In this document: positions 50,487-64,000 of the stretch, one piece after another
Layout: every line of letters starts with the position of its first letter
Position numbering within the stretch: the stretch's first letter is position 1
Sequence record: OP557969.1
Origin: Escherichia phage ph0011
Strand: one strand, 5' to 3'
Length of the DNA: 64,000 nucleotides
The notes under the pieces: generated by a model
The model's database searches: none
What the model saw: only the letters and a program-made list of their open reading frames with translations
What the model was told of the DNA's origin: nothing
Program-made: the position numbers and the translations under genes

Positions 50487-51614
50487 ATGAAAGGTAAATA
50501 TTTTTTTGTTGAAAATGGGAAAGAAGTCGAAATTCAAGAATTCAACTATAATTATGTACTGAACTCTTTATTAAAACAATATGACCGTTCATCAAACAAA
50601 AAATACATTTACAATGTGATTGTACGCCGTACTTATGATTCGTTAGGTAATCCATCATTCGATGTAAAATCATTGTCATTGGATGAAATCTATTTTGATA
50701 ATAGACGCTTAAATGTATTTGATTTAATGAAAGATAAAATTCATTTTAGTAATGTTAGAATTGACCCTAACATGCCAGTACCACCATTGGAGCGTGAGTA
50801 TCGTGAATGGAAAGAAGGTCGTGCAAAACCGCGTCTGGATTTGGTAAAAACATCACCCGACGTTCCTGCACCTATTGTTCTTAAGAAAAAACCAATCAGC
50901 CCAGACGATACCCGAATTAAGGATATTGAATGTGTTGTTGAATTCCCAGATACTATTGAAAAGAACCCAGTCAAAGTGTTAGATTGGTTTATCAACTTAC
51001 CAGTTTGTGCACAAGAAATTGGAACTAAGATTCAACAAGTTTCAGAACGACAACTGGAACTCAGTTCTGCATTACAACAGCATAGTGATTATATCAGAAT
51101 GCTCATGGATAACTTAACAGTAGCTTTGGAAACCTTGTTCCCACTGAAACCGACATTCACCCAGAAATTATTTGGTAAAACTGATATCAAAGTACAACCG
51201 TCTGATTTACCAAAAGTGATGAAAAAACTCAATGAAGCTGTAAAGTATGATACCAACAAGTTTAGTGGTTTAAATTCTATGTTTTCTGAAATCAGAAAAG
51301 AAGTTAACGAAATCAAAAATGAACTTGAATATGGTAAGTTGGGCTGTGAATACGCACTATGCAGTGTGGATGATGCATTTGAATATGAATTAACATTAGA
51401 ACGTATTATGAAAATGAGCATTACCACGTCTATGACAGAAACAAGTATTATTGCTACAAACAAACAATATCAAGTTGATATGAATCGTATGATTGACATT
51501 CAAACTATCACTATTCCTTTGATTATCAATCGTTTACAGTCACAGGTAGGTAAGGCAGTAGATACAAGTACTGTTGAGATTATTCGCAACCTTGCATATG
51601 GTAACAAAGAATAA
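50487..51614 (+). CDS. Hypothetical protein (375 aa)
   Basis: ORF. Confidence 0.55.
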   Translation: MKGKYFFVENGKEVEIQEFNYNYVLNSLLKQYDRSSNKKYIYNVIVRRTYDSLGNPSFDVKSLSLDEIYFDNRRLNVFDLMKDKIHFSNVRIDPNMPVPPLEREYREWKEGRAKPRLDLVKTSPDVPAPIVLKKKPISPDDTRIKDIECVVEFPDTIEKNPVKVLDWFINLPVCAQEIGTKIQQVSERQLELSSALQQHSDYIRMLMDNLTVALETLFPLKPTFTQKLFGKTDIKVQPSDLPKVMKKLNEAVKYDTNKFSGLNSMFSEIRKEVNEIKNELEYGKLGCEYALCSVDDAFEYELTLERIMKMSITTSMTETSIIATNKQYQVDMNRMIDIQTITIPLIINRLQSQVGKAVDTSTVEIIRNLAYGNKE

Positions 51615-57947: not shown

Positions 57948-58366
57948 AGTACTATCGAATTCGAGTTGGTGTAAGCTCAGGTTTTAGTAATTGGGTATAT
58001 TATGATTTGCCTGATAGCTATACCGTAGAAGATGTAATTAACTTATATTATGAAGAAGAGACATGGGTACTCAGTACTGAAACACATAGTGTAGTGTGTG
58101 AAGAGCTATGTGCCGAAGATTACAAGCACTGTGTCCAAGCAATGAAGTATTACAGTAAAGAAGTGAAGATGTTATCTGAAAACATTTTTCCGGTAAAAGA
58201 ATGGGCAATTTTACTTGCAAATCCTAACAAACCTGTTAGAATTGGTTATCCAAACAATCATATGGTTTATCGAATGAATAACAAACGTGAGCTAAGTTAT
58301 CAGTATGATTACAGTGCTTCTAAGTTTGGAGTTCTACCACAATTTAAAAAGGCTTATCCAGTATGA
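57944..58366 (+). CDS. Hypothetical protein (140 aa)
   Basis: ORF. Confidence 0.5.
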   Translation: MKYYRIRVGVSSGFSNWVYYDLPDSYTVEDVINLYYEEETWVLSTETHSVVCEELCAEDYKHCVQAMKYYSKEVKMLSENIFPVKEWAILLANPNKPVRIGYPNNHMVYRMNNKRELSYQYDYSASKFGVLPQFKKAYPV

Positions 58367-58698
58367 GCAATGACAGCAAAGAATTTATAGTACGTTGTAG
58401 TTGTGGTGATAATACTGAACATTGTATTCACATTGCACAATATGACTTGACACAAGAAGATGGAGATGGTAAACTTGGTCAATGTTTGGTGAGTATGCGT
58501 TTGAATCCTTTCTTAAAATGGCACAAACGTATATTGGTTGGGTTGAAGTATATTTTCGGTGTAAACGATTTTCAATACAAAGAAGCAATGATTGATGTTG
58601 ACATTCTGAAAGAAGTTGTGTTACAATTAGAAGACACCCGTCCCGATGAGGTAAAGAAAGAAGAAAGAGATAAACGTAGTGATGTGAAGGTTTTATGA
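58363..58698 (+). CDS. Hypothetical protein (111 aa)
   Basis: ORF. Confidence 0.5.
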   Translation: MSNDSKEFIVRCSCGDNTEHCIHIAQYDLTQEDGDGKLGQCLVSMRLNPFLKWHKRILVGLKYIFGVNDFQYKEAMIDVDILKEVVLQLEDTRPDEVKKEERDKRSDVKVL

Positions 58699-58889
58699 GT
58701 ACTGAACTTTATGAAAAAAAGTACTGTACAAATTGCTCAACTGAGTATACAATACAAGGTATGTTAATTTGTACAATATGTAAGTCAAAAGAATCAGCTA
58801 CATTCATAGTTGATGATAGATTTAGTGATTTAAAACAGTTTAAAGCAAACCGCAATCTTCGTATTTTTAGCAATCTAAATAAGGAATAA
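58695..58889 (+). CDS. Small zinc-ribbon protein (64 aa)
   Basis: CTNCSTEY ... CTICKS (C-x2-C ... C-x2-C). Confidence 0.45.
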   Translation: MSTELYEKKYCTNCSTEYTIQGMLICTICKSKESATFIVDDRFSDLKQFKANRNLRIFSNLNKE

Positions 58890-58895
58890 CATTTT

Positions 58896-59324
58896 ATGAA
58901 TATCGAACAAATCATCCGTAATCATTCTTTCTTCGCCCCAGAGACTGGTCGTGTAATTGAGAATGTCAAAATCGAAGAACTTATGGTGAATGTTAAATAC
59001 AAAGAACCAAATGATGAGATTAGTAGCACTTTTTGTGCACTTCGTGCACCATTCCGCAATGAAAAAGCAAAAAAACCAGCATATGTTCTTGCAATTGCTT
59101 TAGGATGTGTTGTTAAACTTGCAGTTGATGAAAATATTATTAATATCAAAGTCGCCCCTACCAATGACGAAGAAAACATTGATTTGAACTTTGATGGTAA
59201 TCTCGACGAAGATGTATTTTTTCAACAGTCACTTGTTTATGACTTCCGTACCGTGACATATTCACATATTAACTTCGTCAATGAAATGGTTGATATTGTA
59301 GCCAAATATGAAGAATCTCTATAA
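58896..59324 (+). CDS. Member of FQxSL paralog family
   Basis: C-terminal DEDVFFQQSLVYDFRTVTYSHINFV shared with the genes at 60538-62643. Confidence 0.55.
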   Translation: MNIEQIIRNHSFFAPETGRVIENVKIEELMVNVKYKEPNDEISSTFCALRAPFRNEKAKKPAYVLAIALGCVVKLAVDENIINIKVAPTNDEENIDLNFDGNLDEDVFFQQSLVYDFRTVTYSHINFVNEMVDIVAKYEESL

Positions 59325-59334
59325 TTAAATCATA

Positions 59335-59360
59335 AAAGCCTCCATGTTGGAGGCTTTTCT
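59335..59360 (+). terminator. Rho-independent terminator
   Basis: agcctcca-tgt-tggaggct followed by tttct. Confidence 0.6.
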
Positions 59361-59381
59361 CACATAAGGAAATGAAGAAAT

Positions 59382-59933
59382 ATGATTGAACAAATTAATA
59401 TTCTCACACAACAAATTACCGACTTTCTCTCAGATAAAGAAGGTTTCAAAACTGAAGTGAAAATGCACGGCGTTAGTCTTGATGTAATTTCACCAGATGG
59501 AAATGTTACAAATTATGATATGTACGAATTGTTTCTTTACACTTTAGCAGTACGTAAACTAGGAAGTGACATTGAACTAAACATTAACACTGATAGTGAT
59601 GGAAATAAAATTTTTGCAATCAATACAAGTGCTAAGTATGATGTTAGTGCAGAAATTAAAAAAATTAACGATAGCTTTGTTGGTTTCACCCATGATTCAA
59701 TTCAAGGTGTTTTTGTAGGTAAACAAACTTCATCAAGTCAATGTCCATTTTGTATTATGACTTTATATAAAAATGGTGATTGGATGCGACAAGACTTGGT
59801 ATATGCTGAAATGTTGTATGCATTTACACATGGTCTAGAAATTGAATTAGATGATAGTGCTTTTTGCTTTAAGAAAATCCGAAAACTCACAAATGATATT
59901 CAAAAGCAACTTAAAGAATTAAATGATAAATAA
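59382..59933 (+). CDS. Hypothetical protein (183 aa)
   Basis: ORF with AAGGAA RBS. Confidence 0.5.
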   Translation: MIEQINILTQQITDFLSDKEGFKTEVKMHGVSLDVISPDGNVTNYDMYELFLYTLAVRKLGSDIELNINTDSDGNKIFAINTSAKYDVSAEIKKINDSFVGFTHDSIQGVFVGKQTSSSQCPFCIMTLYKNGDWMRQDLVYAEMLYAFTHGLEIELDDSAFCFKKIRKLTNDIQKQLKELNDK

Positions 59934-60042
59934 ATGTACCAGAAGTGGTTAACATATCATGTTATTTTCCTCCCTTACATAATAATGATGCGTTATTAGA
60001 TTTTCATTTTATTATTTCTTTTTTGTACAAAATCATATTAGT

Positions 60043-60068
60043 ACTGCCCCGTATATCGGGGCATTTTA
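60043..60068 (+). terminator. Rho-independent terminator
   Basis: tgccccg-tatat-cggggca followed by tttta. Confidence 0.55.
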
Positions 60069-60090
60069 TTATCTAAAATATGGTGATTTT

Positions 60091-60482
60091 ATGAAAAACA
60101 TTGGCTCTTCTATACAAAAAGACCTTTCATTTTACCTTAATAAATTCAGAAGTATAAATGGTAATAAATTTAATAGTATCTATCAGTTCACACATAAAGA
60201 ATATATTACTATTGATCCCTTTTCAAAAAACTGATGTATGTTAATGATAATAATTATAGTGTTAAATTATCATTCGATATTGTGTTGGATAAATTAACAT
60301 TTACGGAATACACTACCAATAAAACTTCATTTTTACACAAGTATAATAGAAAGGTATATAATCATATTTCTAGTTATTTAAATGAAGAATATTACTTTCA
60401 ACAATCTACAATAGAAAAAGTATTATTCAGTACTGAAGAATTAAAAGAATTATATTATTGGTATGAGAAATTTACATCTTGA
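60091..60482 (+). CDS. Possible split or frameshifted member of the FQxSL family (47-aa ORF 60091..60234 plus 82-aa ORF 60234..60482)
   Basis: Two adjacent ORFs in different frames joined by TGATG; the downstream part carries EYYFQQSTIEKVL. Confidence 0.35.
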
Positions 60483-60537
60483 CATTATGGTGGTTTCATC
60501 TTACAATACAAGATAATGATGCGTTGAGGACAAATTC

Positions 60538-60948
60538 ATGAGTATAGATTTACACAATGAACTACAATATTTTTTTGATTTGGATATATCACGTTTGAAC
60601 AGACATGTCAATCATATATCCAGAACTATATGGTGGTCTGATGAGGCTGATGAACCAAGGATTCAGATTTGTGATAATTTGTCAGTTTTAAGATTGTATG
60701 TTCTTGATACCGAAATGAATATTATGATAACATACGTACCACCCACAAACAAACTTCTAATCAACACACTAAACCCAGATACAGTACTGAAAATTTTTGA
60801 TTTGGATACGATACAGTCAAGCGAAACACTATTCCAACGTTCATTGGTTGATGATCTAGGGGGTATTTCTTTTGACGATATATTAAAATTGAAGAAGATG
60901 TATAATGAATTATTAGAGATTAAAAATACCGTTCTAATGGGGATTTAA
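60538..60948 (+). CDS. FQxSL paralog family member
   Basis: SETLFQRSLVDDLGGISFDDI. Confidence 0.55.
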   Translation: MSIDLHNELQYFFDLDISRLNRHVNHISRTIWWSDEADEPRIQICDNLSVLRLYVLDTEMNIMITYVPPTNKLLINTLNPDTVLKIFDLDTIQSSETLFQRSLVDDLGGISFDDILKLKKMYNELLEIKNTVLMGI

Positions 60949-60949
60949 T

Positions 60950-61354
60950 ATGGTAAGTTTATTAGATATTGATAATACTAGTCTGGTTCTGGTGAAAAAA
61001 GGATTAATTCCAAATTCTAACAAGATTGATTATGCTGTTATTGAAACAAATATTGGGAATATCTGGTACGACTCTGAAAGAGACATTGTGTTTAGCTGTG
61101 TAGATAGTGATCGTTCTGAGTGCTGTAGGGTTGGGCATGACGGACAATTTATTTTCGAATTTCGTTTCTGGAAAGATTCCAGATTTCACCAGGAGCATGT
61201 TTCAATTACAAATGTAAATTGTAATGAAGAATCATTCTTCATGGAAAGTACTATTAATGATTTTGGCTCAGTTACTTTTGAGTACTATAAAAAAGTATAT
61301 AACTTGTACAGAGAAGTAATTCGAATCATAAGAACCTCTGAGGGTCAAGATTAA
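60950..61354 (+). CDS. FQxSL paralog family member (variant motif)
   Basis: NEESFFMESTINDFGSVTFEYY. Confidence 0.5.
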   Translation: MVSLLDIDNTSLVLVKKGLIPNSNKIDYAVIETNIGNIWYDSERDIVFSCVDSDRSECCRVGHDGQFIFEFRFWKDSRFHQEHVSITNVNCNEESFFMESTINDFGSVTFEYYKKVYNLYREVIRIIRTSEGQD

Positions 61355-61355
61355 T

Positions 61356-61733
61356 ATGACTACTACCATATATAATATTTTAGGTAACTTGAATAAAAAC
61401 ATAGATAATGATTTTGTTATAGTTGAAAACACTAAAAATATAATTCATCTACCATTGGGTACACCAGATAGGTTAATTTTTAACATATACGCTAACACAC
61501 TGACATACATACACGATGGTATGGTTATCGTTGTGCTTGATATTAAAGAAAATACAATACGATATGCATATGACTTTAACGTTTATTGGTCAAGAACTCA
61601 TAGTATTGATATTGAGGAAGATGAACTTTTTCAATTATCGTTAATTGAGAAAAATGTAATAGGAGTTACCGAGATTGGTATTGTTAAAAAAGCTTTGGAA
61701 TATGCAAATAAAAAAATAAATGGCGAACTATGA
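61356..61733 (+). CDS. FQxSL paralog family member
   Basis: EEDELFQLSLIEKNVIGVTEI. Confidence 0.5.
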   Translation: MTTTIYNILGNLNKNIDNDFVIVENTKNIIHLPLGTPDRLIFNIYANTLTYIHDGMVIVVLDIKENTIRYAYDFNVYWSRTHSIDIEEDELFQLSLIEKNVIGVTEIGIVKKALEYANKKINGEL

Positions 61734-62194
61734 TGAACATTGAGGAAATAAAAAATCATTTTGAAATTGCATTGTCTTGTGATTTTGATAGTTGTTATGT
61801 TACTGAACCAGAAGATATAATTAGAATTTCCACATCGTTTTCAGAAGAATACAATATACTCATTGAGAAATCATATGACAGAACCGAACTCTCATTTTAC
61901 AATAAGGATTTACGAACAACATCATTTATATTATTATATAACACAACATCGGATATAATAGAGATTATAACAAGTAAAACAGGTAAAACAAGTAAAGATG
62001 TACATTATGAGACTATACCAAATGTAAGTTATTGTTCAACAGAAGAAGGATACTTCCAGGAATCACTTATTAAAAATTTATCAGTTAGCTATTCTGATTT
62101 AAGCATTATAGTCAATTATGTGGAAAAGTTAAATGATTTCGTTCTATCGATGTTTGATATCACTGAGCAAAAACCAAAGGAAATCAAATGTTAA
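61730..62194 (+). CDS. FQxSL paralog family member
   Basis: TEEGYFQESLIKNLSVSYSDL. Confidence 0.5.
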   Translation: MMNIEEIKNHFEIALSCDFDSCYVTEPEDIIRISTSFSEEYNILIEKSYDRTELSFYNKDLRTTSFILLYNTTSDIIEIITSKTGKTSKDVHYETIPNVSYCSTEEGYFQESLIKNLSVSYSDLSIIVNYVEKLNDFVLSMFDITEQKPKEIKC

Positions 62195-62643
62195 ATCCTG
62201 GACATTTTTTTCATTTACTGGACATTACACCTATACCCGATTTGATCAGCGAGACTAATCATTATCGTGATATTGGAATTGTATCAATGGAATATGATTC
62301 ACCTGACTTTAAATGTTACGTAACATACGATCAGGTGGCTTATGAGTCAGAGCCTGAGATTAAAAAACCATCATATATTTTTGTGTTCATATATAATGAT
62401 TATAGTGGTGATGTACTGAATGATGTTCATATTGACACATTTGAAATATGTGGTAATATTATATCAGATGATTCAGCATCCACATTTGATTTGGAATTAA
62501 ACAGTACTGAAGAGTCACTTTTTCAGTTGAGTACTATATGTGATACTATATTAACTCTAGATGACATTGAGAAATTTAAAGAACAGCTTGACGCAGTTCG
62601 TGAGATGTTCTATAATCATTATCCAGAAGTAGAGTTCAATTAA
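62188..62643 (+). CDS. FQxSL paralog family member
   Basis: TEESLFQLSTICDTILTLDDI. Confidence 0.5.
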   Translation: MLNPGHFFHLLDITPIPDLISETNHYRDIGIVSMEYDSPDFKCYVTYDQVAYESEPEIKKPSYIFVFIYNDYSGDVLNDVHIDTFEICGNIISDDSASTFDLELNSTEESLFQLSTICDTILTLDDIEKFKEQLDAVREMFYNHYPEVEFN

Positions 62644-63300: not shown

Positions 63301-64000
63301 ATGAAACCTATCCGAGTACTATCTCTTTTTAATGGAATGAGTGTAGGATACATGGCATTAAAAGATGCTGGTATCCCTGTTGAAAAATATTATTCATCCG
63401 AAATTGACAAATTTGCTATAGCTGAATCCCAAGCTAACTTCCCCGATATAATCCAATTGGGTGATGTAACTAAGTGGAGAGAATGGGATATTGAATGGGA
63501 CAAGATAGATCTACTGATGGGTGGTTTTCCATGCTTCCCAGCAGGAACTATGATAATGACAAATAAAGGTCATAAAGATATAAAAGATATAAAAATTGGT
63601 GATATGGTTCTTACACACACTGGACAGTACCAAAAAGTATTGAGTACTGGTGTTAAAAAGGCTCCCACTCGTATTATTACGGGTCAAGGTCACCTTCCAA
63701 TTGAATGTACCGATAATCATCCATTTTGGAGTAGGGAACGTCTAGCCAATAAATGGAATAATCAACGCCGAAGATATGATTCTGTGTTTTCTGAACCGCA
63801 ATGGGTAAATGCTATAGATCTTACTAAACAAAGTTATATTTGTAATGTTAAAAATATTACACATAATACTGTAAGTGATAAAGATGAAAAATATTGGTAT
63901 TTTGTTGGTCGTTTTATGGGTGATGGATGTGCTAGTGTATCTAATAACAAATACAGTATTACTATTGTAGATTCATTAGATAAAGTTGATGAATTGAAAA
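63301..64000 (+). CDS. DNA (cytosine-5) methyltransferase, N-terminal part, interrupted by an intein; 3'-truncated at window edge
   Basis: Motif I region VLSLFNGMSVGYMAL and motif IV GGFP-C parallel M.HhaI (FIDLFAGLGG ... ILCAGFPCQ); frame open to nt 64000. Confidence 0.6.
   Translation, partial: MKPIRVLSLFNGMSVGYMALKDAGIPVEKYYSSEIDKFAIAESQANFPDIIQLGDVTKWREWDIEWDKIDLLMGGFPCFPAGTMIMTNKGHKDIKDIKIGDMVLTHTGQYQKVLSTGVKKAPTRIITGQGHLPIECTDNHPFWSRERLANKWNNQRRRYDSVFSEPQWVNAIDLTKQSYICNVKNITHNTVSDKDEKYWYFVGRFMGDGCASVSNNKYSITIVDSLDKVDELK
63532..64000 (+). mobile_element. Intein N-terminal part with LAGLIDADG motif inserted at the methyltransferase Pro-Cys motif; continues beyond the window
   Basis: Begins CFPAGTMIMTNKGHKDIKDIKIGDMVL (intein block A-like); LAGLIDADG-like FVGRFMGDGC near 63900. 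Confidence 0.6.

Follow-up and report, generated by a model that had tools for sequence, protein, structure and literature searches.

The 64,000-nucleotide (nt) stretch of Escherichia phage ph0011 DNA that we analysed (sequence record OP557969.1; hereafter "the window", meaning this whole stretch) contains, between positions 58896 and 62643, a tandem array of seven small genes whose products share a block of residues containing FQxS. We here name these genes the FQxS family. The window is AT-rich (~33% GC), with almost every gene on the + strand. The original prediction had described the array as at least six paralogous open reading frames (ORFs) and a fragment; the six ORFs and an 82-amino-acid ORF were indeed found at the positions given, all of them carrying the block. 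Members 3–7 are tightly packed or overlapping. The features of the array are listed below together with their orthologues in the jumbo phages 121Q and RaK2; functions given for the hairpins and the promoter-like site are putative.

58896-59324, + strand: member 1, 142 amino acids, PHROG 23322, orthologue of 121Q gp80 and RaK2 ORF184; motif EDVFFQQSLV at 59208-59237, + strand.
59325-59367, + strand: terminator-like hairpin AAAAGCCTCCA-TGT-TGGAGGCTTTT after member 1 (inverted repeat I12).
59382-59933, + strand: interloper gene, 183 amino acids, PHROG 15745, orthologue of 121Q gp81 and RaK2 ORF185.
60045-60073, + strand: terminator-like hairpin with a T-run upstream of member 2, from a terminator scan.
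60091-60482, + strand: member 2, PHROG 33313, orthologue of 121Q gp83, split into 60091-60234 (47 amino acids) and 60234-60482 (82 amino acids); motif EEYYFQQSTI at 60384-60413, + strand.
60479-60507, + strand: sigma-70-like promoter TTGACA-17-TACAAT before members 3–7, from a promoter scan (11/12 matches).
60538-60948, + strand: member 3, 136 amino acids, PHROG 24941, orthologue of 121Q gp84 and RaK2 ORF186, the member chosen for modelling; motif SETLFQRSLV at 60820-60849, + strand.
60950-61354, + strand: member 4, 134 amino acids, PHROG 24510, orthologue of 121Q gp85 and RaK2 ORF187; motif EESFFMESTI at 61226-61255, + strand.
61356-61733, + strand: member 5, 125 amino acids, PHROG 36084, orthologue of 121Q gp86; motif EDELFQLSLI at 61617-61646, + strand.
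61730-62194, + strand: member 6, 154 amino acids, PHROG 30841, orthologue of 121Q gp87 and RaK2 ORF191, its start overlapping the stop of member 5; motif EEGYFQESLI at 62042-62071, + strand.
62188-62643, + strand: member 7, 151 amino acids, PHROG 30548, orthologue of 121Q gp88; motif EESLFQLSTI at 62509-62538, + strand.

Pairwise BLASTP scores among the paralogues were weak (best 28.5 bits) and insufficient to decide whether the genes are related; pairwise identities ranged from 12 to 25%. Hidden Markov models (HMMs) were built from six members at a time and scored against the 547 stop-to-stop ORFs of the window. The left-out member ranked first of 547 in all seven tests, with expectation values (E) of 5e-7 to 5e-5 for six members (1.5e-6 for member 1) and 0.015 for the gene at 61356, while the best unrelated window ORF reached E values of 0.007–0.3. 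This gene, member 5, is the weakest by sequence; a 45-sequence profile that includes it matched it at E 1e-18. A regular expression for the block, run on the six-frame translation of the 64-kb window, gave 6 matches against 0.02 expected from shuffles, all on the + strand between 59208 and 62509, and the seventh copy (SETLFQRSLV) was off by one position. Each member matched its own PHROG of "unknown function" over its full length (E 1e-37 to 1e-82), and member 1 (8.5e-82) hit other PHROGs of the family as well. These PHROGs match one another weakly, in the motif region, and cross-hit further ones (17453, 21500, 24321, 27549 and others).

The leave-one-out models, the motif count against shuffles and the cross-hits among the seven PHROGs thus bear out the proposed paralogy. 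All seven ORFs belong, as old and divergent paralogues, to a single lineage-specific family, which is found in RaK2-like jumbo phages of Enterobacterales. Within the motif, the serine codons alternate between TCN and AGY, the phenylalanine and glutamine codons also vary, and the sole DNA repeat among the copies is a 20-nt stretch that encodes the motif itself. This indicates that conservation acts at the protein level and that the duplications are old. The family consensus, (T/S)-E-E-x-hydrophobic-F-Q-x-S-(T/L)-(V/I)-x-D, lies in the C-terminal third of the window members. The shared block had been described as terminal; it is present in all seven proteins, but lies 32–50 residues before the C-terminus.

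The interloper gene at 59382 keeps its position in all relatives and was considered as a hidden eighth member. It gave no family-HMM match and an hhalign probability of 0.6%, and its AlphaFold2 model (predicted local distance difference test score, pLDDT, 92.5) has a different order of alpha and beta elements and extra helices compared with the FQxS fold. We therefore do not count it as a detectable member.

The supposed fragment at 60234 is family sequence, but it constitutes the 3' part of a full-length seventh member spanning 60091-60482. Its equivalent in 121Q is a single ORF of 131 amino acids (gp83), and the 82-amino-acid ORF aligns to positions 50–131 of 131 in PHROG 33313. The poly-A run at 60225-60230 is A6 in the window (CAAAAAAC) and A7 in relatives (CAAAAAAAC), and the A7 relatives, which are 98.6–99.94% identical, encode an intact protein of 130 amino acids (P0036). 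The window differs from the metagenomic contig L008 by only two indels, both single-A contractions, at 51613 (A9 to A8) and 60225 (A7 to A6). Because the other indel is also a contraction by one A, we attribute the split of member 2 to an error in homopolymer length or to slippage that happened very recently. At the split, the heptamer A_AAA_AAC stands in phase, so that a -1 slip would restore the frame; this is an observation only and not evidence of programmed frameshifting. A further split was seen in contig L007 (14156-14670), from a close relative, where a family member of 171 amino acids downstream of the methyltransferase gene is divided into ORFs of 82 and 100 amino acids.

The window derives from an Asteriusvirus-like E. 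coli jumbo phage. At the nucleotide level, the region is 84–85% identical to Asteriusvirus (the 121Q/PBECO4 group), represented by ~35 jumbo coliphages, and to some relatives from Salmonella. Contig L008, of the 350-kb class, matches the window at 99.94% identity along 13.4 kb, and the 60538 protein is identical to database entry P0004, which occurs on metagenomic 350-kb contigs (one of 350,346 bp). No match to the phage was found in the complete E. coli genomes searched, indicating that it is not a resident element there.

The tandem array anticipated from the window is real, but it does not stop at 62643: an iterated HMM detected three further members just past the window end, after the methyltransferase gene. 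With the same approach, seven members each were detected at the syntenic locus in JNE01 and in Klebsiella phage RaK2. Erwinia phage Kaldavass has three members among tRNA genes, and two distant metagenomic phage contigs hold at least 15 and at least 10, beside a DNA methyltransferase gene. The genome of 121Q, a related E. coli jumbo phage of 350 kb, was assembled almost complete from eight pieces. A strict motif expression retrieved 33 of its ORFs, against none in 50 shuffles, and the iterated HMM converged on 57 ORFs, or ~9% of the genes of 121Q. The converged model gave no match on reversed or shuffled ORFs, and when applied to the window it returned exactly the seven known ORFs. The paralogous expansion is consequently much larger than had been supposed: the array in the window is the first cluster within a superfamily that numbers 57 members in 121Q.

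All 57 ORFs lie on the + strand, at 58–65 kb (10), 71–95 kb (8) and 160–188 kb (35), with four singletons. Their median length is 147 amino acids and their median isoelectric point (pI) 4.75. Counted over 55 of them, the motif residues occur as F in 53, Q in 52, the two E in 46 and 44, and S in 43; members at 160–188 kb carry the motif nearer the centre of the protein, with a longer C-terminal tail behind it. A deep search with the paralogue profile against 1.84 billion (1.84e9) representative proteins (E<=1e-3) returned 49 clusters. Two of these are long repetitive proteins and a few are short fragments, the others measuring ~110–170 amino acids, and the motif was present in 40 of the 40 sequences read. 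One of the proteins, P0072 (L010, 8001-8990; 329 amino acids), is a tandem fusion of two FQxS domains. Another, the metagenomic P0064 (115 amino acids), is a chimera of a foreign N-terminus and the C-terminal 50 amino acids of an FQxS protein. It accounts for the match of one of 45 members to PF21220 (RecQ-1-like_HTH; E 3.7e-12), which covers residues 9–33, outside the shared domain, and is irrelevant to the family.

In PHROGs, the family is divided into many unlinked groups without name or function, and neither the superfamily nor its fold is recorded there. The RaK2 genome paper states that "nearly 10% of gene products are paralogues" and does not describe the FQxS family (PMC3622015); the CBB paper counts 22 paralogous ORFs (PMC5259590). 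As far as the literature on RaK2-like phages could be searched, it contains general remarks on paralogues and no account of this family. Multigene families in giant viruses are already known; the FQxS family, its motif and its size are undescribed in the searchable papers.

The structure of the 60538 protein (member 3) was predicted with AlphaFold2 from the 45-sequence family alignment (pLDDT 93.2; predicted template modelling score, pTM, 0.84). The model contains a helix at residues 5–13, seven strands between residues 21 and 86, and helices at 95–104 and 112–134. In the predicted FQxS fold, a helix at the N-terminus is hence followed by an antiparallel meander of seven strands, then by the short helix aB and, at the C-terminus, the long helix aC. 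The motif (residues 95–104) opens the first of the two C-terminal helices in this model, where the conserved block would form the N-cap and first turns of aB. Its S/T-x-x-E pattern would fit a helix-capping box, and the block probably belongs to the fold core instead of acting as a catalytic or targeting motif.

Models of the same fold were found in BFVD for proteins of RaK2, GAP32, CBB and Yersinia phages, different paralogues among them (template modelling, TM, scores of 0.6–0.87); all BFVD matches are uncharacterised jumbo-phage proteins. A Foldseek search of the Protein Data Bank (PDB) gave nothing below E 0.01, and searches of Pfam, NCBIfam, PADLOC and, by profile, PDB sequences gave nothing above noise for FQxS members. 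Chains of p32/MAM33 recurred in the Foldseek PDB list with weak scores (E 0.3–1.6, TM ~0.3).

The original prediction had taken the expansion as a sign of diversifying selection. Between window and 121Q orthologues, the gene-wide ratio of non-synonymous to synonymous substitutions (dN/dS) was 0.08–0.32 for family members, overlapping the 0.04–0.25 of neighbouring genes, and the duplications are ancient, so that diversifying selection is not supported at this gene-wide level. The ratios are, if anything, overestimates, since the synonymous rate dS is high (0.4–1.4). Pooled dN/dS was 0.26 before the motif, in the variable N-terminal part, and 0.17 from the motif onward. Several members have nevertheless diverged faster in protein sequence than the neighbouring genes. 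Member 1 has 91% amino-acid identity to its 121Q orthologue (dN/dS 0.08), members 3–6 show two to three times the amino-acid divergence of member 1 or of the interloper, and member 6 diverges fastest (47% identity, dN/dS 0.32).

Positional orthologues in JNE01 stand in the same order with 28–68% identity, the gp83-type gene being missing. In RaK2, which belongs to a different genus, the order is partly kept with 28–45% identity. Together with the lack of shared nucleotide repeats outside the motif codons and the 12–25% identity among paralogues, these ordered orthologues show that the duplications are ancient and not recent. The copies have been kept in order across genera under purifying selection. 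Overall, old duplications gave rise to copies that were retained under constraint; some of these diverged rapidly, and copies were occasionally lost.

FQxS members are, as observed or predicted, small (~110–210 amino acids), mostly acidic, soluble, single-domain proteins, and no transmembrane-like segments were found in them. The pI of the window members is 4.05–4.9, against a window median of 5.5; member 7 is the most acidic (pI 4.05, net charge -24). A pI below 5 was calculated for 70% of the 57 members in 121Q and for 37% of the window ORFs. A DNA methyltransferase gene adjoins the FQxS arrays in Asteriusvirus, in RaK2 and in the two distant metagenomic contigs, the enzyme being of the C5 type in three of these settings and N6/N4 in one. 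The published mass spectrometry list of phAPEC6 virion proteins (62 proteins; Table 1) contains nothing between gp078c and gp149c (PMC7247149), and the phAPEC6 orthologues of the family, gp127c-134c, are absent from it. In RaK2, none of the ORFs with a virion-protein annotation belongs to the family. Because the orthologues are absent from the phAPEC6 virion proteome, a virion role is unlikely, and so is the host-range role that had been suggested for the array. Anti-defence or decoy roles, the other suggestions, appear plausible because the proteins are acidic and are encoded in an accessory region beside a DNA methyltransferase gene.

Our preferred reading, which we hold with a probability of about 0.4, is that the FQxS family may be a panel of proteins that share one scaffold, bind partners inside the cell and serve host takeover or anti-defence. 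The genes would be transcribed from sigma-70-type promoters in an accessory region that also holds small genes, tRNA genes and the DNA methyltransferase gene. Each paralogue would expose a variable surface of beta-sheet and loops that binds a different partner and neutralises or redirects it. Candidate partners would be host nucleic-acid-binding, defence or housekeeping proteins.

Known viral systems offer two comparisons. Large DNA viruses carry tandem families, such as MGF110/360/505 of African swine fever virus (ASFV) and the ankyrin/PRANC and Bcl-2-like families of poxviruses, for which a role at the host interface is presumed. The FQxS family resembles these in having dozens of divergent paralogues on a small scaffold, clustered in accessory regions and non-structural, but its fold is unrelated. 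The second comparison is with T7 Ocr, ArdA and T4 Arn, which are small acidic non-virion anti-restriction or DNA-mimic proteins from accessory or early regions; a DNA methyltransferase is itself an anti-restriction device. FQxS proteins are likewise small, acidic and non-virion, and their genes flank a DNA methyltransferase gene. The Pfam and PDB searches revealed no resemblance to Ocr, ArdA or Arn in sequence or fold, and the predicted FQxS fold is beta-rich and not an elongated charge mimic. Among known anti-defence, anti-restriction and defence-associated families, no curated model or solved structure gave a match above noise.

Several points weigh against a panel of binding proteins. The acidity of the family is only moderately above the phage background, and the proximity to the methyltransferase may reflect inherited synteny instead of a shared function. 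The gene-wide dN/dS values carry no arms-race signature. Binding partners, oligomeric state and timing of expression are all inferred, and the burial of the motif is deduced from predicted secondary structure. The family has no match in the domain, defence-system and structure databases named above, and no published account of it was found in the literature searched.

Among the alternatives, the FQxS proteins could be oligomeric acidic platforms, p32/MAM33-like trimeric rings. Like mitochondrial p32/Mam33, such rings would act as chaperones for basic proteins that bind nucleic acids, or would sequester them; examples are ribosomal and nucleoid proteins and DNA-binding proteins of the phage. 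The predicted FQxS fold has the p32 order of elements; membership in the p32 family is unsupported. None of the 45 members matched MAM33 (PF02330) at E<=10 and hhalign against human p32 gave a probability of 0.06%; we keep the relation to p32/MAM33 as a weak resemblance in topology only. The known proteins (p32/gC1qBP/MAM33; PDB 1P32, 7TE3, 1YQF) show no sequence or profile similarity to FQxS members, and p32 itself is a trimeric eukaryotic, mitochondrial protein of ~200 amino acids. We consider p32-like platforms unlikely.

It is also unlikely that the family is largely dispensable, semi-neutral filler, in which a stable small fold has expanded within a headful-packaging giant genome with little function per copy. 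The gp83-type gene, frameshifted in the window and absent in JNE01, would fit this, as would the split 171-amino-acid member of contig L007 and the several other tandem families carried by Asteriusviruses. However, orthologues of each paralogue persist in ~35 phages and in different genera, at dN/dS values far below 1, and the frameshifts lie in homopolymers and may be sequencing errors.

A more far-reaching proposal, which we regard as quite unlikely, treats the 57-member superfamily as a library of specificity modules on a structurally new scaffold, in which each paralogue would recognise a different host protein and either inhibit it or deliver it, through the invariant helical module, to phage Clp/HslUV-like proteases. 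That the proteins are substrate adaptors for the proteolysis machinery of the phage is likewise quite unlikely. By analogy with the poxvirus ankyrin/PRANC families, the helical module would dock a ClpS-, ClpA-, ClpP- or ClpYQ-like partner while the variable sheet picks host substrates. Such adaptors would agree with one invariant module and a highly variable remainder across 57 paralogues, and 121Q does encode ClpS, ClpA-like, two ClpP-like and ClpYQ-like proteins. The case is purely circumstantial, however: in the predicted structure the conserved block is part of one compact domain and does not form a docking module that could be separated from it, and database and profile searches found no similarity to known adaptors.

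It is very improbable that the family consists of virion-internal or injected proteins or assembly factors, with the S/T-E-E block as a prohead-protease site or capsid-targeting signal. The pattern S/T-x-E does resemble the cleavage motifs of giant-phage prohead proteases, and the annotations of RaK2 and fEgEco12 give a virion protein for a neighbouring gene (58363-58698, 111 amino acids). Against this stand the absence of family orthologues from the phAPEC6 list and from the annotated virion ORFs of RaK2, and the prediction that the block is helical within a folded domain. The latter, with the absence of the proteins from virions, also led us to reject the motif as a site for a protease like that of tobacco etch virus. 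Finally, low BLASTP scores and an AT-rich genome might suggest that the motif reflects compositional chance or a DNA-level element instead of homology, a reading reduced to a negligible probability by the leave-one-out HMMs, the shuffles, the reversed and shuffled nulls, the shared high-confidence predicted fold and the synonymous and serine-class codon variation within the motif.

The results place ~9% of the genes of 121Q (57 ORFs) in one superfamily that can be recognised by a simple motif; its fold is predicted with confidence, and no solved structure clearly corresponds to it. Dozens of separate "hypothetical protein" groups are thereby reduced to one tractable problem, and the genes to be addressed by cluster deletion, interaction screening and structural work are defined. 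The family also provides a bacterial-virus case for the question of why giant viruses retain large multigene families. Members that turned out to be inhibitors or adaptors with specific targets would supply many reagents against proteins and defence systems of E. coli and Klebsiella. Were they a library of specificity modules, they would be to bacterial viruses what the PRANC family is to poxviruses or the multigene families are to ASFV, and by direct inhibition would form a broad arsenal for anti-defence or host shutoff.

The promoter-like site before members 3–7 is also present in 121Q, fEgEco12 and L008, with an invariant -35 box and a nearly invariant -10 box, and is followed by a GAGGA Shine-Dalgarno sequence. 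It is overlapped by the second copy of a 40-nt intergenic element, which occurs twice with 70% identity and ends in TAATGATGCGTT: at 59955-59994, after the gene at 59382, and at 60486-60525, before member 3. The 12-nt repeat TAATGATGCGTT alone (two copies) was not significant, since two or more matches arose in 12 of 100 shuffles.

Products encoded in the surrounding region include TelA-like, peptidase, LemA and C5-methyltransferase proteins, with tRNA genes and a sigma factor gene downstream. Directly upstream of member 1, an ORF of 64 amino acids (58695-58889) has two CxxC pairs (CTNC...CTIC), a zinc-ribbon-like look and 95% identity to its 121Q orthologue. The C5 DNA methyltransferase gene (63301-64000, continuing past the window end) contains an intein inserted at the catalytic motif, between LLMGGFP and CFPAGTMIMTNKG. 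Its counterpart in L008 encodes a product of 626 amino acids that matches DNA_methylase, Hint_2 and LAGLIDADG_3, and the JNE01 gene is similarly long (629 amino acids). In L006, L007, 121Q and fEgEco12 the gene is without interruption (286 amino acids).

Other genes were seen within FQxS arrays elsewhere. A gene for peptidyl-tRNA hydrolase 2 (PTH2) lies inside the arrays of RaK2 (ORF188; L002, 6840-7253) and of a metagenomic phage (L011, 4537-4947), and tRNA genes are interspersed with FQxS members in 121Q and Kaldavass. 121Q has an unusually full set of proteolysis and chaperone genes, comprising a ClpS adaptor and ClpA-like, two ClpP-like, ClpYQ-like, DnaJ-like and GroES-like proteins (L018, L014, L015, L012), and also encodes a protein kinase and a Ser/Thr phosphatase. 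Further tandem runs occur in the same genome. At 117–131 kb (L009, 48490-50000; L013, 1-12756) there are ~15 minus-strand genes, gp234-248, most of them annotated as RCC1-like "DNA condensation" proteins, several orthologues of which were seen in phAPEC6 virions. Two long runs of genes for proteins of ~60–75 amino acids, gp249-265 and gp319-341, lie at 131–135 kb and 155–161 kb (L013).

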